A stretch of DNA of 63,246 nt, the filler included. It is 4 parts of 4 records of this genome, joined end to end, with 100 filler letters (N's around TTAATTAATTAA, not from the genome) between each part and the next. Parts side by side here need not be neighbours in the genome. Positions count along the whole stretch, not along the records: positions 44,361 to 58,001 come from DRR723986_1302; 3 more parts are not named here. One strand, given 5' to 3'. This document shows positions 43,367 to 58,001 of this stretch, piece after piece; position 1 is the stretch's first letter, and each line of letters opens with the position of its first letter. The notes below the pieces were generated by a model. The model did no database searches and was not told the origin of the DNA. It saw only the letters and a program-made list of their open reading frames with translations. The position numbers and the translations under genes are program-made.

Positions 43367-43966
43367 TCAGTACGATTGTACCTTGGTGGCGTGAGAACCA
43401 CAGTGTGTGCAAACGAAAACATAGATCATCGCACAGTCCCAGTAGGCAAAGTCGTTCGGAAATGAAGTATCCAATTGCGCGTAGAATGTCATGTTGAATC
43501 CACAACACTTCGGAGTATCTTCAGATTGAATCCAGTCAGGTGTTCCCCCAATCTTAAACTTGGGATAGTTGCCTTCTTCAGTAGCACCGGTGTGAGTCGA
43601 GCGCGGAAGACCGTCCACAGAGAGTGTGTGCTCATCCAAGGTAGGTCCTGGTTCGGCATCTGCGCCGAGCCATTTGCCTAATGCAGACGCCGCTACGTTC
43701 CAGGCCACCTTATCTTCGAACGAGGAGTCAGGAAAGACTACCGTGATATCCCGCTGGTTGGTGTCGGCTTCGTGTTGAGATTGACCAGAGTTCTGCGATT
43801 GCCGTAGTCGTCTCATCTCGCCAACCCCGGGCAACGAAACTCCTCGATGCATATTTTCGCTAAGCACGTTTCCGAGTGCCTTGAGCACACCCGATACGTC
43901 TTCGGGCTTCAGACGGGTTTGCTCGGCAATGAGTGCTACCAGTTCTTCTTTGTCAATTGGTTTCAT
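43367..43966 (-). CDS. HU/IHF-like N-terminal domain fused to DUF1963/YwqG-like C-terminal domain
   Basis: KEELVALIAEQTRLKPEDV...VSLPGVG resembles the HU body; KIGGTPDWIQ...C..MTFYAQLD...WDCAMIYVFVCTHC...VQSY resembles YwqG/PDCD2_C. Confidence 0.65.
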   Translation of the reverse strand: MKPIDKEELVALIAEQTRLKPEDVSGVLKALGNVLSENMHRGVSLPGVGEMRRLRQSQNSGQSQHEADTNQRDITVVFPDSSFEDKVAWNVAASALGKWLGADAEPGPTLDEHTLSVDGLPRSTHTGATEEGNYPKFKIGGTPDWIQSEDTPKCCGFNMTFYAQLDTSFPNDFAYWDCAMIYVFVCTHCGSHATKVQSY

Positions 43967-44360: not shown

Positions 44361-45269
44361 GTTGCCGGTCTGGGTATTGATCACGTCGCCATGGTTGGCG
44401 CCCTCGCTCATCAGCACCGGGTAGTGGTTGTAATACAACCCGGACGGGCCGTTCTGTCCGCTGACTTTACCGGCCAGGCTGATGCTGTTGGAGCAGGAAT
44501 CAATACCGCTGGCACTGGTTGCTCCGCAGGCTGAATGGGTGGGAACAACGCCATCGTCGGTGCCATCAATAAAGGGTTTGGTGATACCTCCGTAGGATGA
44601 GCCACCGCCAACGAACCGCAGGCGCGGAATGCTGTTGGGGCTGACGGCCAGGTTGCGGGCAACGTTGGTCTGCAAGTCGTTGACCACACCCAGATTATCC
44701 GGCTCCGGGTCAATGCCGGTAAAGGCTTTGACCGCCTGTTTCACCGGCCAGTTGTACCAGCTGTCGTTGTAGGCAATGCTCACGGCCAGGTCGGCCAGTT
44801 CCGTGCCACCACCGGCACCGGCCATGTCCAGTACTGCCAGGATTTTCAGCGGTTGCAGGCCTTCCGATTGCAGCCAGCGCGCCTGGTTTTCCAGCAGATG
44901 GCGGGTTACCAGATCGCCGGTGGAGTGGGTAACAACAACGCAGTAGTCATTACACAGCCCTTGCTGACTGATCTGCCGCAGTTGCTGAAAAGCCTGCTGG
45001 GCGATCTGGCCTTCTACCCGGCCATTGCTGGCCCAGTCGATACGGGCTTCGGCCCGGTTCAGCCAGTATTCCCGCCAGTTATCTTCGCCGGCCTGCTGGA
45101 CTTCCTGGAAGTTGGCCGGTGGGTTGGACAGATCATCCATCATGAAGCCGTGAACCAGAATCACATTGTGGCCGGCCAACTGCGCACTTGCGCCAGTGGC
45201 AAACAGGCCGCCAGCCAGCGCTGTCGCGAGGGCGGTTTTCGTCAGGCATCCTCTTCTTTTCATTGTCAT
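44361..45269 (-). CDS. Secreted lipase-like alpha/beta hydrolase (3' truncated by contig end)
   Basis: Signal peptide; VILVHGF oxyanion motif, THSTG nucleophile elbow, DGVVP, NHG. Confidence 0.8.
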
Positions 45270-45309
45270 TGGTTGCTCCGTTTCTTTCCGATTTATTGTT
45301 GTGGTGTTA

Positions 45310-46374
45310 TCAGAACTTGTCCGCCAGCTGCCGTAGCAGGGCAGCCCGTTGTTCTGATTCGGGATTCATCGCCGGCTGGTTTTGGAGGCCGTCCAGATCC
45401 GGCGGTGAAAATTCATAGCCTTCCTCGGGACCGAAGGCGTAGTCGGTGCGGTCGCCCGGGGCGGCGGGTAACCGGCGTATCTGCAAATGCCTAAGTTGCA
45501 GGGTGCCCTGAATGTCGCGATTGGCTAACACGCTGCCATGGGCTTTCAGGCGAATGACGGCCGAGCTGCTGCCCAGAGACGTTTCCTGTTGCAATTGGGC
45601 CAGCGGGGTTTCGCCGCTGTAGAGCTGTGCAGAGAGGGCGTAATAGCCAGACTGTTCCGGGTCGAAGCGCACAGGGATGACCAGGTCGTTCCCAGACACA
45701 TAGGCGGTTTCCAGACCCTCGAAGCTGCCCAGGTCGGGTTCGATGGTCAGTGAAGACACATGTCGAACGGGCTTGCCGTCTACCCGGGCCTCCACAATCA
45801 ACCGGTACTCGCCGGGGGGATGATCGGAACTGACGGTGCCCTGGTAATAACCGGGGTCTGCATTCTCCAGCTCGGCAGAGGCTACCCGGCCCCGCTCTCC
45901 GGCCGTCTCCAGGGTGGCGGACAGAGACTGGCCGAACACCTGACGACCATTCAGTGACGCTACCACCAGAATCGGCTCACCCTGGCTGAAGCGGAATTTG
46001 TCCAGCGTCACCACAAAGCGGCCATCACCTTCGAGCGGGAGCACGACCGGGTGGTAGCGGTTGCCTTGGTAAGCCTCTGCCTGAGCTTTGGTCAGCGGCA
46101 CCGAATAATCCGGGTACCGAATGGTCTGTTGGTATTCATCTGCAACACTTGCCAGCATGAAGCCCAGCGCATTTTCAGAGGGTGGCTCGGGAACAGGCCC
46201 GGCAGGTGTGGCCGGAGCTACGGTATCCTGGTTAGAAACCATTTGGGGCGCGGAAGAGTTGGTGTCTTGCAGCAGGCCCCGGAAGCTGCCCTCGTTCTCG
46301 GCAGAGAGCAGCCACACGGTGCCGGCCACACCGGCGGTGATGGCCAGGGTTAGGCTTAATGCCCGGTACGGCAT
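45310..46374 (-). CDS. N-terminally anchored periplasmic hypothetical protein with Ig-like beta domains
   Basis: 354 aa; N-terminal TM helix, Pro-rich linker, beta-rich body; directly upstream of the hydrolase. Confidence 0.75.
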   Translation of the reverse strand: MPYRALSLTLAITAGVAGTVWLLSAENEGSFRGLLQDTNSSAPQMVSNQDTVAPATPAGPVPEPPSENALGFMLASVADEYQQTIRYPDYSVPLTKAQAEAYQGNRYHPVVLPLEGDGRFVVTLDKFRFSQGEPILVVASLNGRQVFGQSLSATLETAGERGRVASAELENADPGYYQGTVSSDHPPGEYRLIVEARVDGKPVRHVSSLTIEPDLGSFEGLETAYVSGNDLVIPVRFDPEQSGYYALSAQLYSGETPLAQLQQETSLGSSSAVIRLKAHGSVLANRDIQGTLQLRHLQIRRLPAAPGDRTDYAFGPEEGYEFSPPDLDGLQNQPAMNPESEQRAALLRQLADKF

Positions 46375-46503
46375 TGTCAGACCCCGTTATTGTTGTTGAT
46401 GGTTGGGTTAACTTTTAACCATAGGGTCGGATTGTCCTAAACGGCAAAAATTTAGGCCGGAATTGCGGAGGTTTTGTGTCGTTTTGAGAGGCGGTTCTCA
46501 AAG

Positions 46504-47106
46504 TCAGAACCAGCCACTGTCTTTGATGGCCTCAAAGCCGAAGCGCAGCCGCACTTCGTCTCCCACCAGCCCGTTTTCCAGGCCGTAGGTCATGCCCCAA
46601 TCGCTGCGGTTGATGACAGCCTCCGCGCTTATGCCCAGGGTGTAGTCTTCATGGCCGATGGGATACTCCGCGGCCTTGTTCAGGGTGACATTCACATCGA
46701 CCGGTCGGGTCTGCCCCAGCAAGGTCAGGTCGCCGGTCACTACGCCAGTATTGTCACCGGTTTTTTCAAAGTCACTCACCACAAAGGTAATCTCCGGGTA
46801 TTTGCTGGCGTCCAGAAAATCGGGCTTGCGGAGGTGGTCGTCCCGTTTATCGTGGTTGGTAAAGACACTGCTGGCTTTGAAAACCAGCTTCCCGGAATTC
46901 AGTTCTCCGGTTTCTTCATTGTATTCAAACTGGCCTTCAATATCCCGGAACATGCCCATCACCGGGGCATAACCGATATGCATGATTTCGAAGCTCATGG
47001 AAAAGTGCTCTTCGTCCACTTCGAACTTAGCCGGCTCTGCAGACACACTGGTAGCGGTGGCCAGCAGGATTGAGGTTGTCAGAGCTTCAGGAAATGACAG
47101 TTTCAT
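46504..47106 (-). CDS. YceI family periplasmic protein
   Basis: Signal peptide; H..F...H.G, RDDHLRKPDFL, YPEITF, GDLTLLGQT, INRSDWGM. Confidence 0.92.
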   Translation of the reverse strand: MKLSFPEALTTSILLATATSVSAEPAKFEVDEEHFSMSFEIMHIGYAPVMGMFRDIEGQFEYNEETGELNSGKLVFKASSVFTNHDKRDDHLRKPDFLDASKYPEITFVVSDFEKTGDNTGVVTGDLTLLGQTRPVDVNVTLNKAAEYPIGHEDYTLGISAEAVINRSDWGMTYGLENGLVGDEVRLRFGFEAIKDSGWF

Positions 47107-47842
47107 GATTTTGTCTCCTTTGGTAGAGCCAGCGCACGTCCAGATAAAAGGACCAGGCAAGCAACGCCAGAGCGAGCCCGAGCGTCAGGCTGGCGAACAA
47201 TGCAGGGGTAATGGGCACAACGGCGACCATCAGTGTGACCACCTGCCAGACACAGATGGTCTTCCGTCGGAAGCTGTCTGGCAGCGGGTTATTCAGCCAG
47301 GGCAGCGGCCAACTGGCCAATACGAACAGATAGCGCATCAGGCCCAGGGCAATGACCCAGCTACCGGCTTTCTCCAGAGCCAGTGTGGCAACGCACAGCC
47401 CGAGGATAAAGAGCGCGTCCAGCTCCATATCGAAACGGGCACCGAAGGCGCTATGGCTTCCTGTTGCCCGGGCGATTTTGCCGTCGACACCGTCCAGCAA
47501 CAGGGCGATCAGGCTGATAACCGCATAACTCCAGAGCGCGGCTGAGGTTGCTGAAGACGAGTGGTCACCGAGGAACGGAGCCCAGCCAACCAGTGCCAGC
47601 ACCAGAACCGAGCGCAGCAGCGTGGCGCGGTTGGCCCAGCCGAAGTCGGCCCTCCGCCGCCAGTGCCGGAGGATAAGGGCACTTTGCCCGAGATAGAATG
47701 CAAAGGTGATTAACCAGAAGCCGGTTGGCAGATCAAAGGCTTTGTCCAGAAAAAACGAAACGCCAGCCAGGCCCAGCATTCCCAGGATCAGATCACTGAT
47801 GGGGCTGAAACTTCCTTTCATTGAGGTGCTGGTGGAATCCAT
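47087..47842 (-). CDS. CDP-alcohol phosphatidyltransferase family protein
   Basis: ANRATLLR and DGVDGKIAR...GARFDMELD signature. Confidence 0.92.
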   Translation of the reverse strand: MDSTSTSMKGSFSPISDLILGMLGLAGVSFFLDKAFDLPTGFWLITFAFYLGQSALILRHWRRRADFGWANRATLLRSVLVLALVGWAPFLGDHSSSATSAALWSYAVISLIALLLDGVDGKIARATGSHSAFGARFDMELDALFILGLCVATLALEKAGSWVIALGLMRYLFVLASWPLPWLNNPLPDSFRRKTICVWQVVTLMVAVVPITPALFASLTLGLALALLAWSFYLDVRWLYQRRQNHETVIS

Positions 47843-47953
47843 ACGCCATTGCGTCCGTATAGCCTGTGAGTGGCGTTAGCAAGCTCCCATTCTATGACTA
47901 TAGTTTGGAGAGACTGCTTTTGCGTACGCGACCATTCATCAAATGGACTATTC

Positions 47954-48934
47954 ATGGACGTTGAGAACAACACTGCCTTTTGGATTACCGGGTATCAGGA
48001 GGCCAGGTTAGGGCCAGTGCCCGAGCCGACATTTCCCGCTTCTGAAACACCGTATGTGATCGTTCGTTCCCGCTATTCCGGCATCAGCCGGGGGACGGAA
48101 TCCCTCGTCTACAACAACCAGGTTCCTGAAAACGAATACCAGAGAATGCGGGCACCGTTTCAGGAAGGCGAATTTCCGTTTCCGGTGAAATACGGCTATG
48201 CCAGTGTAGGAGAGGTTGTGGACGGGCCGGAAGCCCTGCTGGGGCAGAACGTATTCTGCCTCTATCCTCACCAGCAGCGATACGCGGTGCCCGCATCCGC
48301 GGTTCTGCCTTTGCCAGCCAAGGTTCCAGCCGAGCGAGCAGTGCTGGCGGCCAACATGGAGACCGCCGTTAATGGAGTCTGGGATGGGCAGCCTGCGGTT
48401 GGTGACCGGGTCGCGGTGATTGGTCTTGGCGTGGTGGGCTTGTTGGTGGCCTGGCTGGTCAATCGCATTCCCGGCGTGGAACTGATTGCGGTTGATACCA
48501 ATGAAGGGCGAAGATCGGTGGCTCAAGCCCTTGGCGTACGGTTCACTACCGAGCCGGACATCCAGAACTGTGACCTGGTATTTCATGCTTCCGGGCACCC
48601 CTCGGGGTTGGCCAAAGCCTTGTCGCTGGCGGGGCCGGATGCCCGGGTGGTTGAATTGAGCTGGTATGGCGACACGCCTGTTTCCGTGCCGCTGGGCCAC
48701 GCGTTTCACCCGAACCGGCTGACTCTGAAATCAAGCCAGGTGGGCCAGCTATCGCCGGAGCGCAGACCGCGCTGGCACCATCGCCGACGCCTGGAACTGG
48801 CGCTTTCCCTGCTGTCAGAGCCGGTTCTGGATGCGCTGATCAGTGGAGAGTCGAGCTTTGACCAGCTTCCGAAAGTCGCCAGAGATATCCTGATGCCGGG
48901 CGCCGATGCGCTTTGCCACCGAATCGTTTACTAA
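47954..48934 (+). CDS. Zinc-binding alcohol dehydrogenase-like (MDR) protein
   Basis: SGISRGTE, YGYASVG, ANMETAVN, GLGVVG; start reset to MDVENN. Confidence 0.88.
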   Translation: MDVENNTAFWITGYQEARLGPVPEPTFPASETPYVIVRSRYSGISRGTESLVYNNQVPENEYQRMRAPFQEGEFPFPVKYGYASVGEVVDGPEALLGQNVFCLYPHQQRYAVPASAVLPLPAKVPAERAVLAANMETAVNGVWDGQPAVGDRVAVIGLGVVGLLVAWLVNRIPGVELIAVDTNEGRRSVAQALGVRFTTEPDIQNCDLVFHASGHPSGLAKALSLAGPDARVVELSWYGDTPVSVPLGHAFHPNRLTLKSSQVGQLSPERRPRWHHRRRLELALSLLSEPVLDALISGESSFDQLPKVARDILMPGADALCHRIVY

Positions 48935-48947
48935 CCAGGGAGAGACT

Positions 48948-49346
48948 ATGTTCAGCCTGACCGTTCGTGATCACATGATGATCGCCCACAGCTTTAACGG
49001 TGAGATTTTCGGGCCTGCCCAGGGCGTTCACGGGGCAACCTATGTGGTGGATGTTACTTTCGAGCGCCACGTACTCGACAACAACGACCTGATTGTCGAC
49101 ATCGGGCAGGCTTCGGCGTTGCTCAAGGACGTGTTGTCGGAATTCAACATGAAGAACCTGGATGATATTCCCCAGTTTGCGGGACGAAACACCACCACAG
49201 AGTTCATGACCAAGGTTGTGTTCGACCGCATGGCAGCGGCCATTCACGCCGGGCGTCTGGGTGACGACGGTAAAGGCGTGGTCAGCTTGAAAGTGACCCT
49301 CAGCGAGTCGCACATCGCGTGGGCCAGCTACCATGCCGGCATCTGA
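48948..49346 (+). CDS. 6-pyruvoyl-tetrahydropterin synthase/QueD-like protein (Cys-less FGPAQxxHG type)
   Basis: IAHSF..EIFGPAQGVHGAT, NLDD, NTTTE, ESHIAWASY; purine-rich RBS before ATG 48948. Confidence 0.9.
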   Translation: MFSLTVRDHMMIAHSFNGEIFGPAQGVHGATYVVDVTFERHVLDNNDLIVDIGQASALLKDVLSEFNMKNLDDIPQFAGRNTTTEFMTKVVFDRMAAAIHAGRLGDDGKGVVSLKVTLSESHIAWASYHAGI

Positions 49347-51252
49347 ACTCTGGTTCGTGGTGCCGGGAGACCCCGGCCAGAACACCGGCGGTTACCGTTA
49401 TGTTCGGCGCCTGGTCGAGGCGTTGGTCAAGGCGGGCATTTCGGTAAAGCTGGCCGGGCTGGAGGGAGCGTTTCCCAAACCGGATGACTTTGCCCGGCAG
49501 TCGCTGGATCGGTTCCTTGCGGGCTTGCCGGACGGAACCCGGGTCGTGCTGGATGGACTGGCGATGAGCGGCCTGCCTGAGGTTTTACAGCGGCACCAGA
49601 GCCGGTTGAACCTGATGGCGCTGGTACATCACCCGCTGGCGGATGAGAACGGCCTGAGTGAGCAGGAGCAGGCCTGGTTCAAGCATTCGGAAACGACGGC
49701 ATTGGCCTGTGTCGGCGCCGTTTTTACCACCAGTCATTACACGGCGGAACGGCTGCAGGCATTCGGAGTGACGCCGGCGCGGGTGACCACTGCCTTGCCC
49801 GCTGTCGACGATGCTTTTTTTCAGCAGTCGCCCCGGATTGGCCGGCGTGATGCCACCAGGGCGATTCACCTGTTGTGTGTCGGTCATCTGTCTCCACGAA
49901 AAGCGCAGCATCAGTTGATTCAGGCGCTTGCTCAACTCACACATCTGGACTGGCGCTTGAGGCTGGTTGGCAGTGCCGGGCGAGCCACGGATTATGCCTC
50001 GGGGGTTCGTGCCCTGGTCCGTGAATCCGAGCTGGAAAGCCGCGTTGAGTTTGCTGGCGAGTTGGGAGAAGCAGATGTGCTGAAGGCTTATCAGCAAGCC
50101 GATCTGTTTGTGTTTCCCTCGCTTTACGAGGGCTATGGCATGGTCATCGATGAGGCCCTCGGAGCCGGTCTGCCGGTGTTGAGTTCCGACGGTGGCGCGC
50201 TGGCTTTGACTGGCGCCAAACCAGGGGTTGAGTTGTATGAAGCGGGCAATGTAGCGGCTCTGGCCACCAGATTGACCCGGCTGATTGCGGAACCGGATGC
50301 CGTTGAAGCACTGGTCGCCGGCGTCATGCAGGCCCGGTGCGAGATCCGTCGCTGGTCTGAAACCGCGCAAGATTTCATTGCCGGGCTGGAAAAGGGCAGG
50401 CCGCGTAATCCGGTTCAATTTGCCGCGGATTGGCTGGAAGCAAGGGAGCCCGCCGATCACCAGGCCCGTGATGATGGGCTGACGGCCCGACTCGCCGAAT
50501 GGCTTACCAAACGATATGACTGTCGGGCGTCGGGTAGTAAACCGGGGGCGCCCCTTCACCTTGTGGATCTCGGTACCGGTCGGGGCTCCAATCCCGTCTA
50601 CCTTAGCCCGAAACTACCGGTACCCCAGCGTTGGACGCTGGTTGAGCCGGACCAAGCTTTGGCCGGGATCGCCCTTCAGCGGGTTGAAAAGCTGGATGCA
50701 CCGGCTGTGCTGGAAACAATGGTCTTGACGAAAGATAACCTCAGTACGGCGTTGCCCGCAGACGCCGACCTGGTGACGTCTTCGGCCTTGGTCGACCTGG
50801 TTTCCGAACCCTGGTTGAGCGCCTTGTCTGCAGCGGTGGCCAAACGTCAGGCGGCATTGTTGGTCGTCATCACTTACAGCGGCTATTTTACTCTGGAACC
50901 TGCTCATCCCTTCGATGACACACTGCGCGCTCTGGTCAATGCCCATCAACATCGGGAGAAGGGCAGTGGCGCTGCGCTCGGCCCGGACGCCACGGCCTGT
51001 TTGAGCCGTCTGATGTCTAACAAGGGCTATCACATCCAAACGGCAGATAGTCCCTGGGTATTGACGGGTGAGCAGGCCAGCCTCGCCGCAATGTTGCTTG
51101 AGGGCTGGGCGGAGGCTGCCACAGAACAGCAGCCGGAACAGGCGAACGATATCCAATTCTGGCTCGAAACCCGTCGGCAACAGCTGGATACCGGCGCCCT
51201 CGCCATTACCGTGAGCCATACGGATCTGCTGGCATGGCCGAAGCAGGTCTGA
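49333..51252 (+). CDS. Glycosyltransferase family 4 fused to class I SAM-dependent methyltransferase
   Basis: TGGYRY, VHHPLADE, PSLYEGYGMVIDEA; then DWLEAREPAD, DLGTGRGSN, SALVDL. Confidence 0.88.
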   Translation: MPASELWFVVPGDPGQNTGGYRYVRRLVEALVKAGISVKLAGLEGAFPKPDDFARQSLDRFLAGLPDGTRVVLDGLAMSGLPEVLQRHQSRLNLMALVHHPLADENGLSEQEQAWFKHSETTALACVGAVFTTSHYTAERLQAFGVTPARVTTALPAVDDAFFQQSPRIGRRDATRAIHLLCVGHLSPRKAQHQLIQALAQLTHLDWRLRLVGSAGRATDYASGVRALVRESELESRVEFAGELGEADVLKAYQQADLFVFPSLYEGYGMVIDEALGAGLPVLSSDGGALALTGAKPGVELYEAGNVAALATRLTRLIAEPDAVEALVAGVMQARCEIRRWSETAQDFIAGLEKGRPRNPVQFAADWLEAREPADHQARDDGLTARLAEWLTKRYDCRASGSKPGAPLHLVDLGTGRGSNPVYLSPKLPVPQRWTLVEPDQALAGIALQRVEKLDAPAVLETMVLTKDNLSTALPADADLVTSSALVDLVSEPWLSALSAAVAKRQAALLVVITYSGYFTLEPAHPFDDTLRALVNAHQHREKGSGAALGPDATACLSRLMSNKGYHIQTADSPWVLTGEQASLAAMLLEGWAEAATEQQPEQANDIQFWLETRRQQLDTGALAITVSHTDLLAWPKQV

Positions 51253-52205
51253 ACCCGGAGAGGCCGGTCCCCGGCTTTGGGCGAGGGGTGTTTCGCTGGT
51301 GCGTCACCTTGCTGCTCCTGGGGATTGTTTTTGTTTTCGTCGACATCGATAGGCTAGCCCAGAGGCTGACGATGGTTCCGCCAACGATCGTCCTTGCGGT
51401 ATTGGTGGTCTCGCTGATTCAGATCGCACTGTCGGCCTGGCGCTGGCGGTATACCGCGAACCGGCTCGGTGTAGTCATGGGCTTTGGCTTTGCCTTTCGG
51501 GAGTATTACCTGGCCGGGTTTCTGAATCAGGTGCTTCCCGGGGGCGTGATGGGGGACGTAAATCGAGCCTGGCGCCACAGCCGTTCGGCGAAGCGTTTGC
51601 AGCAACTGGCGATTGTCCATGCGGTTGTGCTGGAGCGCCTGTCAGGCCAGTTGGTGCTGGTACCGGTTGTACTGATTGCGGTGTCCGGGCTTTGGTGGAC
51701 CGGGCAGTTAAATAGCCAGTTCGGTGACGCAGGCGTATCCCTGAACCTGGGCTATTGGCTGATTCTGCCCGCGTTGGCCGTGCTCGGGGTTTTGCTGGTC
51801 TCTATGACGGGGTTCGGGGCCGGGTTCAGGCGTTATGTCCGACGATTAAGCGGGGATGTGCGTCGGGCTTTTCTGGGTTGGCGGAATGCCCTGGTGCAGG
51901 TTGGTACCTCGGTTCTGGTTTTCCTGACCTATATGGCGGTGTTCATGTTGATGGCCACTGGCATGGGCTTGTTTGTCGACGGCACACCCTGGCTGTTGGT
52001 CGTGGCCCTGTGCCCGCTACTGTTATTGGCCATGGTGGTCCCGTTAACGGTGTCTGGTTGGGGCGTCAGAGAGGGCGTAGCGGCTATTCTGTGGCCATTG
52101 GTGGGGCTGCCGGCAGAGCAGGGCGTGGCGCTGAGTGTTGGCTATGGTGCGGCGGTGTTTCTGGTGAGTCTGCCGGGTGCCCTGGCGCTGCTGTTCCGCC
52201 GGTAA
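51234..52205 (+). CDS. Lysylphosphatidylglycerol synthase TM-domain (flippase-like) protein
   Basis: AWRW, FLNQVLPGGVMGDVNR, LERLSG, PLTVSGWGVREG. Confidence 0.88.
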   Translation: MAEAGLNPERPVPGFGRGVFRWCVTLLLLGIVFVFVDIDRLAQRLTMVPPTIVLAVLVVSLIQIALSAWRWRYTANRLGVVMGFGFAFREYYLAGFLNQVLPGGVMGDVNRAWRHSRSAKRLQQLAIVHAVVLERLSGQLVLVPVVLIAVSGLWWTGQLNSQFGDAGVSLNLGYWLILPALAVLGVLLVSMTGFGAGFRRYVRRLSGDVRRAFLGWRNALVQVGTSVLVFLTYMAVFMLMATGMGLFVDGTPWLLVVALCPLLLLAMVVPLTVSGWGVREGVAAILWPLVGLPAEQGVALSVGYGAAVFLVSLPGALALLFRR

Positions 52206-53072
52206 TCAGGGTTTGGCGGTGTCGAACGCCAGATCAAAAAGCATATCGCTGCCAAGATTCACCAACTGGGCTTTGGGGCGAAGCGCCTCATCCAGTTGGT
52301 CAATCTCCGGCAGGGAGAACGCTGGCCGGCCGCTGCCAATGATCATGGGGGCAACCATCACATGTAAGCGGTCCAGTAATCCCGCCTTCAGGAAAGACGA
52401 GACGGTAACGCCTCCGCCCTCGATAAAAATCTTGCGAAGTCCAAAATCCTGTAACACCTGCAGGATACGTTCGGGAGAAGCAGGGGTTTCGTTTTCTGCG
52501 GAGCCCAGGCAAGGCACTGTTGTAACCCCGGTCGGATCCAGCGTTTTCGGGCCTGGCTGATAATCGCCGGCAATCATGTGCAGGGTAGGCGCATCGCCGT
52601 CGGTGAACAGGTGGTGGCTGGCAGGCACCCGCTGCCGGCGGTCGATCACGACGCGCACCGGGTTGCGGCCAGAGGTTCGGCGCACGGTCAGGCGCGGATT
52701 GTCGGTGCTGGCCGTTCCGGCACCGACCACCACAGCGTCACACAGGGCGCGGATTCGGTGCAGGTGGGTGATGCCGTCGTCACCGTTGATAAACCGGGAG
52801 CAGCCGGTGACCGTGGCGATCCGTCCATCCAGGCTTTGGCCAAGCTGGCCGATCACCCGGCTGTTGGTGCTCACCGGCTGACAGAGAGGCAGGAACAACG
52901 ACAACAGGTTTCTTGCCTGTTCGGTTGCCGGCTGAATGAGTTCCCAGCTTTTGCCGTTGATCTTCACCGCGGGTTGGTCAGAACCGGGCACGGGCAGGGT
53001 GATATTGCTCCGGTTGATCGCGCTGAGTACCAGATCCCAAGCGTTATCGGTGTCCAGTGCGTCATTTGCCAT
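52206..53072 (-). CDS. RibD C-terminal reductase-domain protein (no deaminase domain)
   Basis: QSLDGRIAT, HRIRALCDAVVVGAGT, DNPRLTVR, IEGGG, APMIIGSG. Confidence 0.9.
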   Translation of the reverse strand: MANDALDTDNAWDLVLSAINRSNITLPVPGSDQPAVKINGKSWELIQPATEQARNLLSLFLPLCQPVSTNSRVIGQLGQSLDGRIATVTGCSRFINGDDGITHLHRIRALCDAVVVGAGTASTDNPRLTVRRTSGRNPVRVVIDRRQRVPASHHLFTDGDAPTLHMIAGDYQPGPKTLDPTGVTTVPCLGSAENETPASPERILQVLQDFGLRKIFIEGGGVTVSSFLKAGLLDRLHVMVAPMIIGSGRPAFSLPEIDQLDEALRPKAQLVNLGSDMLFDLAFDTAKP

Positions 53073-53190
53073 GTGGTACCTGCTCGTTCGTTGTTCGTTT
53101 CAGTATAGGCAGATTGTGTCCAAAGCTATATGTACGATACATTTCCGGTTTGATTCACTTTTTCGACCAACTTTTCAGGGGCACGGAGCC

Positions 53191-53607
53191 ATGCGGTACC
53201 TGCAATCTTTTAACCGTCGTCTGCGTCGTATTCGGGAGCAGGGCCAGTTGTCCCTGGGGGATGTGGCCGAAATGTGTGGCGTGGACGAGGCCCGTGTCCG
53301 CAGCTGGGAGGCGACGGACGCACGCCAGAGAGGGTACCCCGGGGTTAGTGAATTGCTGGATTTTTGCCTGAAAACCGAAACACCGCTGGAACGTCTGTTG
53401 GATATGGACGATGACGGTGAAGATGGGCAACTGGAACTGCCAGGGCTGGCGTTCAGCAACAGTGATGATCTGTCAGTGGCGCTGAAAGAGCTTGAGCAGG
53501 AGATCAATCGAATCCAGCTCAGTGATGACGAAACCGAGCTGTTGCGCCGGTTCCGCAAGGCAAGTGCAGATAACCGGCGCATGGTGTTGCAGCTATTGGG
53601 GCGCTAA
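53191..53607 (+). CDS. XRE-family HTH transcriptional regulator
   Basis: RLRRIRE..LSLGDVAEMCGV....VRSWE; RBS GGAG before ATG 53191. Confidence 0.8.
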   Translation: MRYLQSFNRRLRRIREQGQLSLGDVAEMCGVDEARVRSWEATDARQRGYPGVSELLDFCLKTETPLERLLDMDDDGEDGQLELPGLAFSNSDDLSVALKELEQEINRIQLSDDETELLRRFRKASADNRRMVLQLLGR

Positions 53608-53623
53608 AGGGCCCGGGTCGCCT

Positions 53624-54460
53624 CTATTTTCCCTTCTTGTAGATATTCTCGTACACGAAGTTGGTGGCCTCCACGAAACCGTCGATGCTGCCGCAGTCAA
53701 AACGCTGACCTTTAAACTGGTAGGCCAGCACGCAACCATTCTTCGCCTGCTCCAGCAGGGCATCGGTAATCTGAACCTCACCATTCTTACCCGGCGGCGT
53801 ACGCTCGATAATGTCGAAAATGTCCGGGGTCAGGATGTAGCGGCCGATAATCGCCAGGTTGCTGGGCGCGTCTTCCGGTGCTGGTTTCTCCACCATGTCG
53901 GTAATACGGTAAAGGCCATCCTTCATGGATTCACCCGCAATCACACCGTACTTGTGGGTTTCGTCTTCCGGTACTTCTTCGATGGCCACAATGGAGCAGC
54001 GGAACTGGTTATACAGTTTGACCATCTGGGTCAGAACGCCGTCACCATCTTCCGGGCCCACGCAGAAATCATCCGCCAGCACAACGGCGAACGGGTTGTC
54101 GCCCACCAGGTTGCGGCCAGTCAGGATGGCGTGGCCCAGTCCCTTCATTTCATTCTGACGGGTGAACGCAAAAGAGTTGTTGTTGATCAGATCCCGGATA
54201 GAGGTAAGCAGGCCTTCCTTGCCGGTACCGGCAATCTGGTGCTCAAGCTCGTAACTGATATCAAAATGATCTTCGATGGCGCGTTTGCCGCGGCCGGTGA
54301 CAAAGCCGAATTCATGAATGCCGGCATCTGCGGCTTCCTCCACCCCGTACTGCACCAGTGGCTTGTTAACGATCGGCAGAATTTCCTTGGGCATGGCCTT
54401 GGTGGCCGGAAGGAAACGGGTGCCGTATCCGGCAACTGGGAAGAGGCACTTTTTGATCAT
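53624..54460 (-). CDS. galU: UTP--glucose-1-phosphate uridylyltransferase
   Basis: PVAGYGTRFLPATKAMPKE, GLGHA, VEKP, GEVQITDA. Confidence 0.97.
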   Translation of the reverse strand: MIKKCLFPVAGYGTRFLPATKAMPKEILPIVNKPLVQYGVEEAADAGIHEFGFVTGRGKRAIEDHFDISYELEHQIAGTGKEGLLTSIRDLINNNSFAFTRQNEMKGLGHAILTGRNLVGDNPFAVVLADDFCVGPEDGDGVLTQMVKLYNQFRCSIVAIEEVPEDETHKYGVIAGESMKDGLYRITDMVEKPAPEDAPSNLAIIGRYILTPDIFDIIERTPPGKNGEVQITDALLEQAKNGCVLAYQFKGQRFDCGSIDGFVEATNFVYENIYKKGK

Positions 54461-54779
54461 GATTGTTCGTCCTTAATCAGGTGGTTTACCGCTTTGTTTA
54501 CCCACAAAGCGTGCCAAGTGTAACCAAGTTGTATGCTGAGTTGGAGGGTTTCATTTCCGAGTGTTGATTTCTGGTAATTCTGTCGACTGGTTCCGATCTG
54601 TCCGGGGTGACTGAAATGCCTAGAAAATTGTTTCAGTCCCGCTTTTAACTACATGATTTTACGTAACATTAAAATTGTAAATTTATGATGATAATGGTGG
54701 CCTGAGAGCGGCCTATCTTTTAAAGTTGCACCGAATTAATGGGTTTACATGAAATGGACATTGCTTCGGGTTTTCCAGA

Positions 54780-55985
54780 GTGCCGCCATTGATCTTCAAA
54801 CTGCCTGTTCGTCACTTCTCATTGTCGGCACTGTTTCTGTGCGCGACGGCGAGCTTGTGTCTGCCAGCCTATGGTTCAGAGGAAGCGCTTGATGGTGCTA
54901 CCTCGGAAACCAGCCGGCAGGCGTTGCTTCCCGAGAACAGTCTGAAGCTGACCCGCGAACACTGGCTGCGCTCCAAGATGAAGTTTTCCGGGCGTACCAA
55001 CCGGGACACGGATCATCGAGATGGGGCGCTGAACGTGGGCCTGAATGGTCTTTTCTGGGCGAATCATCGTGCCGGCGTGCGCTACAGTGACGCCAAGACC
55101 TATCGGGTGGGCAATGAGCGCCGAGTACTCGGCTTCAGTTATGGCCTTCCGGTAGGGCGTAACCATCTGGATATTGAACTCCGGAATACCGCTTATGAAG
55201 AGGTGTCCAGGGCAGACGGTTCCCGTTTTCAGAAAGAAGGACGCACCCGGGATCTGACTATCACCGGCAGGCGGGCCCTGTTCTCTACGTTCGGCTACCA
55301 GTTCCTCGGCCGCGCCGGATACTCTTCCGTAAACCAGTACTGGACCCGAAGAACGGATGAAGTGCATCGATCCAGTTACCAGTTATCGACTGTGGGGTTT
55401 GAGGCTAACGGACATCACAATCTGTACGGTGGTTTTGACCTGAGCAGCGGACTGCGGGCGGTCACGGGTATTGAGGCCGAGATAGAGCGTGCAACCGATT
55501 CGGAACAGGGGCGGCGTGAAGAGCAGTTTGGGCGCATGGTTCTCAGTGCATCGCTTGACCGAGAGTTGCTGGCCTGGCACTGGGGGCTGGACGGGGAATA
55601 CCAGTTGGCGTCTGCCGATATTCCGGGTTCTCAGCACCTGAGGGTTGCCGGGTCAGGGCTGGTGGCGGGTTTCAATGGCCAGTCACTTAGCGTAGCCGAA
55701 GGTGGGTGGCTGCGCCTGGGTAGCCGTAGCCCGGAATTCGACGTTCCGTTCTTTCCCCGGTTTTCGTCGAGTGTTTCTCTTTCTGTCCTGCGCGGCTGGA
55801 TTCCTGATGAATCATTCCAGCAGCATCAGGCAGGACATGTGACGTCGGGAGAGGTCTCATGGGGGCTATCTGCGCGGCAGTTCAGCGCCGATGTCAGCCT
55901 GGGGCGGGTGCTGAACACAACCACAGATGCCATAGCCGTACCTGATCAACCGGATGTCCGCTTTACCATGAGCTTGCAGATCTGA
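54780..55985 (+). CDS. ShlB/FhaC/HecB-like outer-membrane beta-barrel protein
   Basis: Signal peptide; SGRTNRD (cf. GxxxTG), alternating beta-strands, GEYQLA, VAGF (cf. VRGY/F), C-terminal strand. Confidence 0.65.
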   Translation: MPPLIFKLPVRHFSLSALFLCATASLCLPAYGSEEALDGATSETSRQALLPENSLKLTREHWLRSKMKFSGRTNRDTDHRDGALNVGLNGLFWANHRAGVRYSDAKTYRVGNERRVLGFSYGLPVGRNHLDIELRNTAYEEVSRADGSRFQKEGRTRDLTITGRRALFSTFGYQFLGRAGYSSVNQYWTRRTDEVHRSSYQLSTVGFEANGHHNLYGGFDLSSGLRAVTGIEAEIERATDSEQGRREEQFGRMVLSASLDRELLAWHWGLDGEYQLASADIPGSQHLRVAGSGLVAGFNGQSLSVAEGGWLRLGSRSPEFDVPFFPRFSSSVSLSVLRGWIPDESFQQHQAGHVTSGEVSWGLSARQFSADVSLGRVLNTTTDAIAVPDQPDVRFTMSLQI

Positions 55986-56105
55986 AGCAACTCTGCCTCA
56001 CGTCGTTTCATTTGATTTCGATTCGCTTACGAACTTGTCACTTGTAGCAGCCCACGGGCGCGGTGCTACATTGAATGGACAAACCGTGAACCGAGGAAGG
56101 AAACG

Positions 56106-57644
56106 ATGCACGCAGGGAAAGTAGGTCTGGTGGTTCTGGGATTGTTCTTGTTTGCTCCCCTTTATGCCCAGGCGTTCCAGTTTCAGGATGTTGTGGAAAA
56201 AGCGAAATCGAAGGCGAGTGCGGCGTACGAGCCGGTCCCTGGAATTCCCGACTTCATGGCAGGCCTGAGCTACGACGAATACCAGTCTATCCGCTTTGAT
56301 CCTTCAAAAAGCCTCTGGCGAGAAGGGGATTCCCGTTTCCAGGTAATGCTCATTCCCGCTGGTAAATTTTACACCCGTCCAGTAAGCATCCACGTAGTGG
56401 ACAGCGAGGGCGTCCATCCACTGTCGTTCGATAAGAGTCTGTTCAATGTCGACGACGAGGCGCTCAGAAAACGGGTGCCGGCCGATCTAGGCTATGCCGG
56501 ACTCAAGTTGACGTTCCCTTTTGATGGTCCCGACGTAGCCAATCAGTTCCTGGTGTTCGCGGGCGCAAGCTATTTCCGCGGCGTCAGTAAGGAAACCTCT
56601 TTCGGGCTATCTGCGCGGGGTATCGCTGTAGACACGGGTTTGCCGACCGGTGAGGAGTTTCCTGATTTCACGGAGTTCTGGTTGGAGCGCCCCGCTCCCG
56701 ACAGCGACCATGTTCGTGTCTACGCATTGTTGGATGGTCCAAGCCTGACCGGGGCCTATGAGTTCACGGTATACCCCGGGGAGCAGACCCGGGTAGATGT
56801 GAAAGCCCGCCTGTTTATGCGGGAAGACATCGAGTTGCTGGGGCTCGCTCCACTCACTTCGATGTTCTATTACGGGGAACATACTCCCAGGCCGCTTGGT
56901 GAGTGGCGCCCCCAGGTCCACGATTCGGATGGATTATTAATCCATGATGATGCGACCGGCGAGTGGCTATGGCGCCCGCTGATGAACCCGGATCGACTTG
57001 CCGCAAGTTTCCACAGTGTCCGTCGTGTCGGCGGCTTTGGTCTGATTCAGCGTGATCGGGAGTTTCGTCACTACGAAGATCTGGAAGCCCGCTATGAGCG
57101 CAGGCCCAGTGCCTGGGTGAGCGCCGAGGGGGACTGGGGGAAAGGAAATGTGGTTCTGGTGGAGATACCTACGGACGACGAAACCAATGACAACATTGTT
57201 GCGTTCTGGAGTCCGGGAGGTGAGGTGTCCGCAGGCACGTCACGGGATCTGAACTACTCGATTCAGTTCGGCGGTCCCGGGGTGGCGCCACATCCCGGCG
57301 GCAAGGTGGTAAACACCTTCGTCGGCTCAGGGGATCGCATAGGCGGCGGTGACCAGGCCGGTGCCTATCGGATCCTTGTGGATTTTGCCGGCGGTCCCTT
57401 GTCGGAGCTCAACGCGGAGTCTCCCGTAGTCAGCAAAGTGACCGGGGGCGAGGGTGTTGAGGTGCTTGAACACTTTGTGGAGTGGGTAGCGCCAGAGAAT
57501 CATTGGCGATTGTCGATCCTGGCCAAGCCCGCGCCGGATCAGATACTTCAGCTGCGGGGTTTTCTGATGGTGGATGATGAGGTCGCCACGGAGACGTGGA
57601 GCTATTCCTTACCGCCCGGGACAGGCCTGCGGGCAGAACCCTGA
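56106..57644 (+). CDS. opgG: Periplasmic glucan biosynthesis protein G
   Basis: GASYFR, GLSARGIA, EEFPDF, APLTSMF, RPQVHDSDGL, DETNDNIVAFW, ETWSY. Confidence 0.95.
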   Translation: MHAGKVGLVVLGLFLFAPLYAQAFQFQDVVEKAKSKASAAYEPVPGIPDFMAGLSYDEYQSIRFDPSKSLWREGDSRFQVMLIPAGKFYTRPVSIHVVDSEGVHPLSFDKSLFNVDDEALRKRVPADLGYAGLKLTFPFDGPDVANQFLVFAGASYFRGVSKETSFGLSARGIAVDTGLPTGEEFPDFTEFWLERPAPDSDHVRVYALLDGPSLTGAYEFTVYPGEQTRVDVKARLFMREDIELLGLAPLTSMFYYGEHTPRPLGEWRPQVHDSDGLLIHDDATGEWLWRPLMNPDRLAASFHSVRRVGGFGLIQRDREFRHYEDLEARYERRPSAWVSAEGDWGKGNVVLVEIPTDDETNDNIVAFWSPGGEVSAGTSRDLNYSIQFGGPGVAPHPGGKVVNTFVGSGDRIGGGDQAGAYRILVDFAGGPLSELNAESPVVSKVTGGEGVEVLEHFVEWVAPENHWRLSILAKPAPDQILQLRGFLMVDDEVATETWSYSLPPGTGLRAEP

Positions 57645-57658
57645 TCCTGGAGGATCGT

Positions 57659-57916
57659 ATGGACGCGCAAACCTCTTACCAGTTGCTGGGAAAGCTGTTG
57701 GTGTACCTTGAATTGAGTGGCGCCAGTAACGACCGTAAAACGTTCAATGGCGCGCTGGCCTTGCTCGCGGACGGCGTCGCCGGAAACGAACACAGCGTTC
57801 GGTTTGAGGACCTTTTGGCCCGCATTCCTGACTACTTCGAGTTGGGTGAGCCAAGTATTCCGCCGGTAGCTCCGCCGATTCGCCGCAGCAGTATCGGGTA
57901 TTTCACCGATGACTGA
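57659..57916 (+). CDS. Small protein resembling the N-terminal cytoplasmic region of long-form OpgH
   Basis: GGAGG RBS; lies between opgG and opgH; ends PPVAPPIRRSSIGY. Confidence 0.65.
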   Translation: MDAQTSYQLLGKLLVYLELSGASNDRKTFNGALALLADGVAGNEHSVRFEDLLARIPDYFELGEPSIPPVAPPIRRSSIGYFTDD

Positions 57917-58001
57917 GTCAGCGACTGCGTCCCGCTCCTGGCACCTGCAGGCGACGATCCGACGCCTGGTGCTGACTGCGTTTGTGGCGGGACAGACGGG
58001 G
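57909..58001 (+). CDS. opgH: Glucans biosynthesis glucosyltransferase H, N-terminal fragment (truncated by contig end)
   Basis: My translation MTESATASRSWHLQATIRRLVLTAFVAGQTG matches the W..A..RR..L....QT start of OpgH TM1; follows opgG. Confidence 0.7.

Follow-up and report, generated by a model that had tools for sequence, protein, structure and literature searches.

The locus at positions 46504–53072 of the window, the whole 63,246-nucleotide stretch of DNA that was analysed (filler included), is the Marinobacter version of a widespread, uncharacterised PTPS-IV (SCO6650-type) pathway. From sequence comparisons, we give a probability of roughly 0.55 to the reading that this pathway makes a GTP-derived, glycosylated and methylated head group of an envelope lipid, or a donor that decorates another envelope component. 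What is new here is that OpgH alternates with a CDP-transferase–YceI pair beside the PTPS-IV core.

On the plus strand, a dehydrogenase of the MDR superfamily, resembling polyol dehydrogenases or BchC (47954–48934; ADH_zinc_N, 28.2 bits, below the cut-off of 31.8) is followed by PTPS-IV, an SCO6650-like T-fold protein (48948–49346; Pfam PTPS, 79.7 bits). The next ORF (49333–51252) is a fusion of a retaining-type GT4 glycosyltransferase domain (49333–50400; Glycos_transf_1, 88 bits) and a class I SAM-dependent methyltransferase domain (50401–51252; alignment, AF2 and Foldseek), the two being fused in Marinobacter. An LPG_synthase_TM membrane protein (51234–52205; MprF-flippase-like, UPF0104; Pfam PF03706, 125 bits) completes the series. 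The PTPS and GT4 frames overlap by 14 nt, and those of the fusion and the LPG_synthase_TM protein by 19 nt. On the minus strand, a RibD_C-only pyrimidine reductase lacking a deaminase domain (52206–53072; Pfam PF01872, 130 bits) is convergent, its end at 52206 abutting the LPG_synthase_TM end at 52205. Across an intergenic region at 47843–47953 lies a divergent minus-strand unit, consisting of an integral-membrane CDP-alcohol phosphotransferase (CDP-OH_P_transf, hereafter CDP-transferase; 47087–47842; Pfam PF01066, 53.9 bits, cut-off 22) and a YceI-like periplasmic lipid-binding protein (46504–47106; Pfam PF04264, 141 bits). The two genes overlap by 20 nt with the probable YceI start at ATG 47106, ahead of a signal-peptide-like N-terminus, and by 74 nt with the longest YceI ORF, which reaches 47160. 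ORFs and Pfam assignments thus agree with the sequence-only reading, which had described a packed, overlapping dehydrogenase–PTPS-like–GT4/methyltransferase–LPG-synthase-TM operon, a divergent CDP-alcohol phosphotransferase overlapping yceI, and a convergent reductase-only RibD abutting the operon end.

The longest ORFs of MDR and PTPS-IV begin at 47870 and 48906, with ATG 47954 a possible start for MDR. For PTPS-IV, ATG 48948 is most likely the start, giving 132 aa, because public annotations of the protein, under generic names, have this length and because a 1-nt insertion after 48934 is present in RNA-library contigs of three runs (X2, X4 and X10). The contigs of these runs diverge from the window at many further positions. 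RNA-library contigs cover the cluster genes, one of them carrying MDR, PTPS and most of the GT4–methyltransferase gene; their support is weak, since contigs cannot prove transcription. The divergent intergenic region holds one sigma-70-like site (47876–47904, plus strand), the number of such sites being not above chance, and breaks at 47874–47886 in RNA-library contigs from three studies are a weak hint. GCH II and creatininase, noted earlier as absent from the contig, gave no tblastn match (E ≤ 1e-3) in the 63-kb window, nor did OpgH. The opgH gene itself is cut off in the window after ~36 codons.

The PTPS-like protein contains EIFGPAQGVHGATY and not a single cysteine. Its best match in the PDB is 3d7j (SCO6650), at an E value of 3.2e-48 over residues 9–144, with the next PTPS match at 0.0065. 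In the alignment, HGA replaces HGH, Asn-Met replaces an Asp-His pair, and the Glu of TTE is retained. We take the missing Cys, Asp-His pair and one zinc His to be those of active PTPS/QueD, and the TTE Glu to anchor the pterin ring; PTPS-IV may be a binding protein or scaffold. We know of no published function for the subfamily. FGPAQ is given as the PTPS-IV signature in the literature, and the gene neighbourhood published there includes PF00925 and PF01872 (PMC5445326). On sequence criteria the window protein is a member of this published subfamily: direct reading, the 3d7j match and the signature all agree with the earlier claim of an SCO6650-like, cysteine-free protein that is unlikely to be QueD. 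A canonical QueD/PTPS assignment was rejected (no Cys, HGA, and 42.6 bits with the NCBIfam QueD model against a cut-off of 89). One reference M. nauticus genome holds a second COG0720 paralogue with both Cys and HGH, and PTPS-IV is therefore not needed as QueD.

We compared 80 related loci (Marinobacter, Kushneria, Larsenimonas, Salinisphaera and Chromohalobacter), a phylum sample of 20 loci from 401 Pseudomonadota genomes, and a class sample of 37 new loci. Because six core genes recur in unchanged order and orientation in 73 of the 80 related loci, at protein identities down to 36–50%, the arrangement is not due to chance; contig ends truncate six of the remaining seven. MDR, PTPS-IV and GT4 are present in 20/20 phylum-sample loci, with MDR always adjoining PTPS-IV, while the cluster-type methyltransferase is found in 18, RibD_C in 16 and GCH II in eight; MDR was detected in 34/37 class-sample loci. 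The constant core in the wider samples is MDR, PTPS-IV, GT4 and methyltransferase, with RibD_C usual and GCH II frequent. The proposed check on cluster conservation thus finds the genes co-conserved as a unit, and the earlier statement that the subgroup often clusters with GCH II and creatininase is matched in Chromohalobacter and Salinisphaera, where both adjoin RibD_C. In M. daepoensis, a genome-wide search with the window protein did not find the MDR partner; the PTPS-IV gene is intact. The family to which the window cluster belongs is large (678 clusters at 50% identity, E ≤ 1e-10), had been recognised before and is uncharacterised. The idea of an uncharacterised system therefore holds for the family, but the system is not peculiar to this genome.

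Among the soluble enzymes, MDR is matched weakly by the NCBIfam BchC and threonine dehydrogenase models, and its best PDB matches are RspB, idonate 5-dehydrogenase and galactitol-1-P 5-dehydrogenase (E values of 2e-6 to 3e-4); read directly, the positions that we take to be the usual catalytic-zinc ligands are replaced. The nearest solved relatives of RibD_C are the 2,5-diamino-6-ribosylamino-4(3H)-pyrimidinone 5'-phosphate reductases 6p8c (E 2e-28) and 2azn (E 3e-27), with bacterial RibD trailing (E 4e-18). It thus appears closest to reductases acting on the undeaminated diamino substrate, and has an extra N-terminal stretch of ~70 aa with no family assigned. Among solved structures, the GT4 domain comes nearest to sucrose-phosphate synthase Tll1590, MshA and PimB', so that by similarity its closest relatives are PimB' and enzymes that glycosylate phosphates of sugars or polyols. 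Pfam left the C-terminal half of this protein unassigned. That half has a VDLGxGxGSN motif and invariant residues (alignment A2) and an AF2 pLDDT of 94.9, and the named proteins among the Foldseek PDB matches listed are SAM methyltransferases; by predicted fold, it is a class I SAM methyltransferase. Stand-alone methyltransferase orthologues match Methyltransf_25, and GT4 is a stand-alone gene (349–363 aa) in Chromohalobacter, Kushneria and Salinisphaera. The fusion here of domains that are separate genes elsewhere ties the two steps together.

The supply of precursor was considered in one reference M. nauticus strain. Creatininase is absent from its whole genome, and its only GCH II-type proteins are the housekeeping RibA and a RibBA-like protein in which the conserved Cys residues are missing from the GCH II half; the gene for the latter lies at a separate locus, between ORFs that have the sizes of rib-operon genes. 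The suggested search for ribA paralogues therefore recovered the RibBA-like protein besides RibA, but no additional GCH II. With neither a creatininase nor an extra GCH II, housekeeping RibA must supply the precursor, and in Marinobacter the case for a GTP origin of the product is indirect. SCO6655 presumably works through a formyl intermediate with creatininase as deformylase; this logic is not supported in gammaproteobacterial clusters, because the cluster-linked GCH II there retains the Tyr of ordinary RibA.

The chemical steps of the following route are all read from domain families. Housekeeping RibA would convert GTP to 2,5-diamino-6-ribosylamino-pyrimidinone 5'-phosphate, which the RibD_C-only reductase would reduce to the ribityl form. 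MDR, as a polyol-dehydrogenase-like enzyme, and PTPS-IV, as a zinc-less T-fold protein whose retained Glu would anchor the 2-amino-4-oxopyrimidine ring, would turn this into a core of the pterin or pyrimidine type, for instance by oxidising the 2'-OH and then closing the ring to give a pterin resembling dihydroneopterin phosphate. Glycosylation by the GT4 domain and methylation by the SAM methyltransferase fused to it would follow. In Marinobacter, the divergent CDP-transferase could couple the resulting alcohol to a phospholipid, with CDP-diacylglycerol as the simplest source, the MprF-like LPG_synthase_TM protein would move the lipid to the outer leaflet, and periplasmic YceI may bind or carry it.

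The CDP-transferase, read directly, has an intact DGxxDGxxAR-x8-G-x3-D-x3-D motif, which we take to be the catalytic one. NCBIfam models for PgsA, PIP synthase, AIP synthase and PssA match it weakly (≤27.7 bits, cut-offs 107–580), as do CPT1 and PssA in the PDB. It is divergent to MDR in 79/80 related loci, with YceI directly downstream in 67 of the 80 and in seven loci of the class sample. In the wider samples it is less frequent (8/20 phylum, 12/37 class), as is LPG_synthase_TM (8/20 and 1/37), which accompanies all eight CDP-transferase-bearing loci of the phylum sample and only one of the 12 in the class sample. As judged from gene content, the lipid-type genes form an accessory module; since not every cluster has it, the product cannot generally end up attached to a lipid. 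Of the earlier proposal of a GTP-derived lipid, PTPS-IV identity and gene co-conservation have held up, while the lipid part could apply only to a subset of loci.

What varies is the membrane partner: either the CDP-transferase, often with YceI, or a divergent OpgH, the periplasmic-glucan synthase. In eight of the 12 phylum-sample loci lacking the CDP-transferase, the gene divergent to MDR is OpgH by tblastn, and all seven of these that were scored exceed the NCBIfam cut-offs of the MdoH models NF003958 and NF003962. In 11/20 phylum and 11/37 class loci, OpgH is found no more than 10 kb from the core; in eight and nine of these, respectively, it is directly divergent. One partner or the other is found within 10 kb in 16/20 and 23/37 loci, mostly divergent beside MDR; neither was detected in 4/20 and 14/37.

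This alternation suggests that the product might instead sit on or prime osmoregulated periplasmic glucans (OPG), a possibility we regard as real but doubtful. The soluble core would in many genomes pass its glycoside straight to OpgH, and in the Marinobacter type a phosphatidyl-X would be made, flipped and used as head-group donor, much as E. coli OPG receive phosphoglycerol from phosphatidylglycerol and phosphoethanolamine from phosphatidylethanolamine. Beyond the divergent OpgH genes, OpgH lies ~1 kb past the creatininase gene at one locus (L121), at least 31 Marinobacter loci are ordered cluster, HTH, GalU, ShlB-like, OpgG, OpgH, and the distance from PTPS-IV to OpgH is 8.6 kb in the reference M. 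nauticus. OPG substituents are described as phospholipid-derived in E. coli (PMC3818809), and OPG as made by a stand-alone OpgH in Caulobacter (PMC11389396). However, direct adjacency may be limited to one class, so that few independent events may be counted, and in Kushneria, Chromohalobacter, Salinisphaera and one further genome (G083) OpgH lies on a different contig or at a distance of >100 kb. No paper among those listed by a literature search names both 6-pyruvoyl and an OPG term, and the truncated opgH of the window also weighs against this reading.

It is unlikely that the core makes a soluble pterin glycoside, comparable to the cyanobacterial biopterin and cyanopterin glycosides and serving as cofactor, pigment or UV-related metabolite, with the membrane genes as exporters or unrelated. 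Known pterin glycosides fit tailoring by a GT4 and a methyltransferase, the T-fold protein keeps its pterin-anchoring Glu, and loci with neither membrane partner, two of which (L122 and L123) have an EamA transporter instead, would be explained. Yet in Marinobacter and Halomonadaceae the CDP-transferase and LPG_synthase_TM are conserved as strictly as the soluble genes (73/80 complete), the LPG_synthase_TM frame overlaps that of the GT4–methyltransferase, an enzyme whose phosphotransferase motif is intact is no transporter, and the solved relatives of GT4 (E ≤ 0.001) include no pteridine glycosyltransferase.

Service to a known cofactor pathway is very improbable. A 2016 review, citing unpublished work, gave PTPS-IV a role in the F420 pathway, and RibD_C and GCH II belong to families of the riboflavin pathway; against this, CofH was above cut-off in 0/5 cluster-bearing genomes tested, M. 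nauticus among them, and the RibBA-like locus with its rib-operon-sized neighbours is separate from the cluster. We also know of no place for a GT4, a methyltransferase, a CDP-alcohol transferase or a flippase-like protein in riboflavin or F420 synthesis. That the genes are only neighbours is just as hard to credit: RibD_C is on the opposite strand, CDP-transferase and YceI form their own transcription unit and M. daepoensis keeps PTPS-IV alone, but the order is retained at low identity, the core is present in every phylum-sample locus, and reading frames overlap or are fused.

Several known systems resemble parts of the cluster. With canonical PTPS/QueD, the window protein shares the T-fold family PF01242 and the TTE Glu, and differs in the lost Cys, HGH and Asp-His pair. 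With SCO6650 and other PTPS-IV loci it shares the FGPAQ signature, the absence of Cys and the adjacent RibD_C, with GCH II and creatininase adjacent in relatives; in contrast, Marinobacter has no dedicated GCH II or creatininase (reference genome-wide), has fused GT4 and methyltransferase, and has added LPG_synthase_TM and YceI. The archaeal/fungal riboflavin branch (GCH II/III, then the MJ0671/Rib7 reductase) likewise uses a stand-alone RibD_C, closest to that of the window through 6p8c and 2azn. The window enzyme, however, scores 114.8 bits against the archaeal reductase model cut-off of 186, carries the N-terminal extra of ~70 residues, and sits in a glycosyl/methyl/phospholipid gene set and not in a rib operon. 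Creatininase-family formamidases, ArfB and BrbF, are reported to act in that branch (PMC9478397). The CDP-transferase has the catalytic motif and membrane topology class of PgsA, PIP synthase and archaetidylinositol-phosphate synthase but falls far below every model cut-off, and LPG_synthase_TM is, by its Pfam description, the flippase domain of MprF, present here without the lysyl-transferase domain. Compared with OPG substitution, in which OpgB and OpgE use head groups from membrane phospholipids, the Marinobacter cluster lacks an OpgB/OpgE-type transferase, and the link is one of gene position alone; still, many genomes show linkage of opgH with the PTPS-IV core, and the E. coli logic would be followed if a phospholipid were made, flipped and used as donor.

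Open reading frames and Pfam searches place seven genes between positions 46504 and 53072 of the window. On the minus strand lie a gene for a YceI-family protein (46504–47106), whose start was taken as the ATG before a signal-peptide-like N-terminus, and one for a CDP-alcohol phosphotransferase (47087–47842), whose stop overlaps the yceI gene. Divergent from this pair, a plus-strand operon encodes, in order, a dehydrogenase of the MDR type (from 47870 or 47954 to 48934), a member of the PTPS family (from 48906 or 48948 to 49346), a protein of 639 aa whose N-terminal part is a GT4 domain (49333–51252) and an LPG_synthase_TM protein (51234–52205). A 288-aa RibD_C-only protein (52206–53072, minus strand) is convergent with the operon and abuts it without a gap. 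The sequence-only reading had the gene list and arrangement right in every item. In NCBIfam model scoring, none of the seven proteins reached a curated cut-off, and a promoter and terminator scan of the locus stayed at chance level. RNA-library contigs from four runs, which cannot prove transcription, strand or level, cover 27–30 of 30 bins of the interval, uncovered bins carrying no meaning. In three RNA studies contigs break at 47874–47886, inside the divergent intergenic region, and a single contig covers 47880–50854, a weak hint of two divergent transcription units.

M. nauticus DSM 50418 (genome G001, locus L001) served as a stand-in reference, being 99% identical to the window over 44361–58001 and different outside it; its copy of the PTPS-like protein is 100% identical. 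Conservation of the cluster, which the sequence-only reading had proposed to examine, was assessed by tblastn of the window proteins against the best 80 of 155 confirmed related loci. The genes for CDP-transferase, MDR, PTPS, GT4-methyltransferase, LPG_TM and RibD_C are arranged identically, in both order and orientation, in 73 of these 80; the 73 belong to Marinobacter, Kushneria, Larsenimonas, Salinisphaera and Chromohalobacter, with identities down to 36–50%. Six of the seven exceptions are loci cut by contig ends. The seventh, in M. daepoensis (L030:9578–9976), is a lone PTPS-IV gene, intact at 132 aa, with an EamA transporter on one side and HTH/GalU on the other; with the window MDR protein as query no match was found in that genome. 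Either this gene was left behind when the rest of the cluster was deleted, or it points to a role of its own. In 67 of the best 80 loci YceI is found no more than 300 nt from the CDP-transferase; it is absent from 10, in Kushneria, Larsenimonas, Chromohalobacter and Salinisphaera aquimarina.

The PTPS-like protein reads EIFGPAQGVHGATY; it contains FGPAQGVHG and not a single cysteine. FGPAQ is described as the typical signature of the PTPS-IV subfamily, and PF00925 (GCH II) and PF01872 (RibD_C) as occurring in its neighbourhood, in PMC5445326. In a phmmer search of the PDB, the best match was 3D7J, 'uncharacterized protein SCO6650' (E 3.2e-48), with ordinary PTPS and QueD structures ranking behind it at E 0.0065 or worse. 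Alignment to the PDB entries shows that the TTE glutamate, which anchors the pterin ring, is kept, while HGH becomes HGA and the Asp-His pair becomes Asn-Met. Canonical QueD/PTPS-I, -II and -III proteins carry CxxxHGH, CxxxxxHGH or ExxHGH motifs (PMC5041015). An assignment to these canonical families was rejected, given the lack of cysteine, HGA in place of HGH, and a QueD model score of 42.6 bits, where the cut-off lies at 89.25. Judged by FGPAQ and its closeness to SCO6650, the protein belongs to PTPS-IV, and the earlier view that it is unlikely to be QueD holds on the signature, the absence of cysteine and the sub-threshold QueD score alike. The names in public records, '6-pyruvoyl tetrahydropterin synthase family protein' or '6-carboxytetrahydropterin synthase', are generic or wrong. 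The reference M. nauticus also encodes a second COG0720 paralogue of 293 aa with a Cys-x4-HGH motif, so PTPS-IV is not its sole QueD candidate. Translation probably starts at ATG 48948, giving 132 aa, the length annotated in public records, since a 1-nt insertion after 48934 in the RNA-library contigs of three runs is incompatible with an upstream start.

Long PTPS-IV homologues revealed no informative fusion partner; what they carry is either further PTPS domains in tandem or sequence without a family. Four database proteins (P0001, 488 aa; P0004, 855 aa; P0021, 824 aa; P0010, 375 aa) have two to four tandem PTPS-IV domains per chain, and two of them carry ~400 extra residues that Pfam does not recognise. 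In locus L129 a 402-aa open frame looked like an MDR-PTPS fusion but was discarded as not real, its two HSPs lying in different frames.

The MDR protein matches only ADH_zinc_N (28.2 bits, below the Pfam cut-off of 31.8) and has a GxGxxG motif; its usual Cys/His/Glu zinc-ligand positions, read by eye, are Ser/Tyr/Ala, and its closest solved relatives, all weak PDB matches, are polyol and polyol-phosphate dehydrogenases. The GT4 domain scores 88 bits against Glycos_transf_1 and 87.6 bits against Glyco_trans_1_4 (Pfam cut-offs 26.4 and 27) and reaches none of the NCBIfam equivalog cut-offs; its closest solved relatives are sucrose-phosphate synthase, MshA and PimB'. For the last 283 residues of this protein there is no Pfam match. 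A glycine-rich VDLGxGxGSN motif is kept in 22 orthologous domains (alignment A2), the AlphaFold model has a pLDDT of 94.9, and the Foldseek PDB matches listed are, where named, class I SAM methyltransferases (E down to 3.5e-11, TM 0.4–0.6). The domain is therefore predicted to be a class I SAM-dependent methyltransferase, motif, predicted fold and structural matches agreeing with the 'GT4/methyltransferase' label of the sequence-only reading.

The RibD_C protein matches PF01872 (130.5 bits) as its sole Pfam family, the deaminase domain being absent. Its closest solved relatives, 6p8c (E 2.3e-28) and 2azn (E 3.3e-27), are enzymes that reduce the GCH II product in its undeaminated form, with bacterial RibD further away (4e-18). 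Against the archaeal equivalog model it scores 114.8 bits, below the cut-off of 186.45, and orthology to ArfC/Rib7 is thus unsupported. CDP-alcohol phosphotransferases share the motif D-x2-DG-x2-AR-x8-G-x3-D-x3-D. The window protein (PF01066, 53.9 bits against a Pfam cut-off of 22) reads DGVDGKIARATGSHSAFGARFDMELD, and by direct reading the catalytic motif is intact. It matches PgsA, PIP synthase, PssA and CPT1 weakly, and identity with PgsA, PIP synthase or PssA was rejected on NCBIfam scores (pgsA best, 27.7 against 109.1 bits; the others at most 25.5 against cut-offs of 107–580). The LPG_synthase_TM/UPF0104 match (125.4 against 33.4 bits, Pfam) spans residues 26–315 of 323 and places the protein in the MprF flippase domain family; flippase activity is predicted from this membership.

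The window has no GCH II match, and RibD_C adjoins the PTPS-IV operon. In Chromohalobacter moromii (L078) and S. aquimarina (L076), where GT4 and methyltransferase are separate genes, the cluster goes on past RibD_C with a 377–383-aa protein bearing a C-terminal GCH II domain and then a creatininase-family protein. The genomes of reference M. nauticus and Kushneria avicenniae gave no creatininase-family match. PF00925 has just two matches in reference M. nauticus, a stand-alone RibA (L081:1408–2094) and a RibBA-like protein (L087:1486–2613) whose GCH II half is without the conserved RibA cysteines (alignment A1); the stand-alone RibA is probably the only active GCH II of the species. A search for extra ribA paralogs, suggested by the sequence-only reading, thus gave no extra dedicated GCH II in the reference genome. 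With no dedicated early genes in that genome, the precursor of the Marinobacter pathway must come from housekeeping RibA, and the solved relatives of RibD_C, MDR and GT4 point the same way.

The GCH II proteins linked to the cluster at L078:14350–15501, L076:14333–15466, L120:14114–15202 and L121:13968–15062 begin with a ~165-aa domain that Pfam does not assign. This domain shows a weak alignment to the RibB half of RibBA, lacks the acidic motif, and looks like a degenerate DHBP-synthase-like domain. The Tyr to Met change of SCO6655-type GCH II was looked for and rejected: cluster-linked GCH II proteins from four gammaproteobacterial loci keep the RibA tyrosine (NKLRAY), which leaves the role of creatininase without explanation in these genomes.

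The PTPS-IV/SCO6650 family is very common: clustering at 50% identity (E≤1e-10) divides it into 678 groups, and ~5–10% of sampled Pseudomonadota genomes have a homologue. Two draws were compared. Among 401 evenly drawn genomes of the phylum, 22 had a PTPS-IV homologue (E≤1e-15), and the 20 kb around 20 of them were compared. MDR, PTPS-IV and GT4 are present in all 20 loci and a cluster-type methyltransferase in 18, the other two having a different class I methyltransferase nearby; RibD_C occurs in 16, extended GCH II in eight and creatininase in three. CDP-transferase and LPG_TM are found together in eight loci and are both missing from the other 12. By tblastn, the gene divergent to MDR is the glucan synthase gene opgH (mdoH) in eight of these 12, and all seven divergent OpgH proteins scored exceed the NCBIfam NF003958 and NF003962 cut-offs. 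The second draw was made within the class to which one OpgH-type genome belongs; it was positive in 41 of 401 and added 37 new loci. OpgH lies inside 11 of the 37 and is directly divergent in nine. Twelve loci have a CDP-transferase, which in seven is followed immediately downstream by a co-oriented YceI gene, and one has LPG_TM; OpgH and CDP-transferase never share a locus among these 37. Direct OpgH adjacency may represent few independent events within one class. The sampled loci thus share a constant soluble core of MDR, PTPS-IV, GT4 and methyltransferase, usually with RibD_C, and the variable part is an envelope membrane enzyme. Among loci with neither CDP-transferase nor OpgH, one (L119:7086–9014) encodes a protein of 642 aa that weakly matches the Sulfatase family, the LtaS/OpgB/EptA class of phospho-head-group transferases, together with an MFS transporter; in two others (L122 and L123) the core is flanked by EamA transporters and by a methyltransferase of a second type.

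The order cluster, HTH, GalU, ShlB-like, OpgG, OpgH is found in at least 31 Marinobacter loci, and in reference M. nauticus OpgH lies 8.6 kb from PTPS-IV. In the window a small XRE-like HTH gene (52936–53607) is divergent to RibD_C, and galU (53624–54460), above its NCBIfam cut-off, follows the cluster; for both genes this synteny is confined to Marinobacter. GalU supplies UDP-glucose, a likely donor for OpgH and GT4 alike. Collinearity with the reference (99% from 44361) ends at 58001, ~36 codons into the gene that in the reference comes after opgG, namely opgH (window 57894–58060), and a search for an OpgH homologue anywhere in the window gave none. The next 5.2 kb (58002–63246) is absent from the reference genome, its best match being 74% identity to a ClpB paralogue, and starts with an N-terminal ClpB-like fragment (58054–59262, minus strand) and includes DNA polymerase IV (60936–62189). 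The break could be due to insertion of an island into opgH, to a rearrangement or to an assembly join. On the left, collinearity starts at 44361, and the DNA leftwards, including an HU-HIG-like gene (43367–43966), has no match to the reference locus.

From the observed gene content, co-conservation, family assignments and absence of dedicated early genes we infer a single pathway in which a core derived from GTP is tailored and sent to the envelope, in Marinobacter via a lipid, a general scheme to which we give a probability of roughly 0.55. RibA would form a diaminopyrimidine, which RibD_C would reduce to its ribityl form, and MDR and PTPS-IV would remodel the ribityl-diaminopyrimidine; a chemically economical option would be oxidation of the 2'-hydroxyl, after which the 5-amino group could close a dihydroneopterin-phosphate-like ring. 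GT4 would add a sugar, the methyltransferase would methylate, the CDP-alcohol transferase would couple the tailored compound to a phospholipid, LPG_TM would flip the lipid and periplasmic YceI would handle it. Any single chemical step of this scheme is tentative, and clearly less probable than the scheme as a whole.

The best surviving alternative is that the product is directed to osmoregulated periplasmic glucans (OPG), which we regard as possible at rather long odds. The divergent OpgH genes and the Marinobacter gene order are consistent with it. Stated more broadly, and with as little confidence, the PTPS-IV pathway might make a GTP-derived, glycosylated and methylated group bound for periplasmic glucan or envelope by two designs, with the glycoside passing directly to OpgH or, in Marinobacter, travelling via a dedicated phospholipid. 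In the latter design the CDP-alcohol transferase would mount the group on a phospholipid, the MprF-like protein would flip it and YceI would handle it, the product being a membrane lipid or an OPG head-group donor. The other readings are less likely than the general scheme and the OPG-directed variant. A purely soluble pterin glycoside is doubtful, CDP-transferase and LPG_TM being conserved in the Marinobacter/Halomonadaceae group as strictly as the soluble genes. A role in riboflavin or F420 is very improbable: an F420 role is claimed for PTPS-IV in a 2016 review that cites unpublished work, and it was rejected here with CofH (TIGR03551) above cut-off in none of five cluster-bearing genomes, the M. 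nauticus reference included. That these genes are mere neighbours is equally improbable with the six-gene order recurring across five genera.

The reading with two designs would, if true, define a new class of envelope substituent and give a function to a protein family structurally known, yet unexplained, since PDB 3D7J. The alternation of partners, CDP-alcohol transferase with YceI or OpgH, narrows the search to envelope and periplasm and, if it holds, ties nucleotide-derived ring chemistry to envelope and osmoregulated-glucan biology. M. nauticus is genetically tractable, and as a culturable species with a compact six-gene version drawing on housekeeping RibA it is convenient for identifying the compound. 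In the literature we found no paper naming a product or phenotype of the PTPS-IV cluster, no match for SCO6650, for PTPS with CDP-alcohol phosphatidyltransferase and glycosyltransferase, or for creatininase with GCH II and glycosyltransferase, and, among the papers listed, none joining 6-pyruvoyl proteins with OPG. Both the PTPS-IV family and the link of its genes to GCH II and RibD_C are already in print (PMC5445326); new here are the finding that Marinobacter (reference M. nauticus) lacks dedicated early genes genome-wide, the GT4-methyltransferase fusion, a CDP-transferase-YceI pair recurring in two separate samples, and counts for the OpgH alternative.
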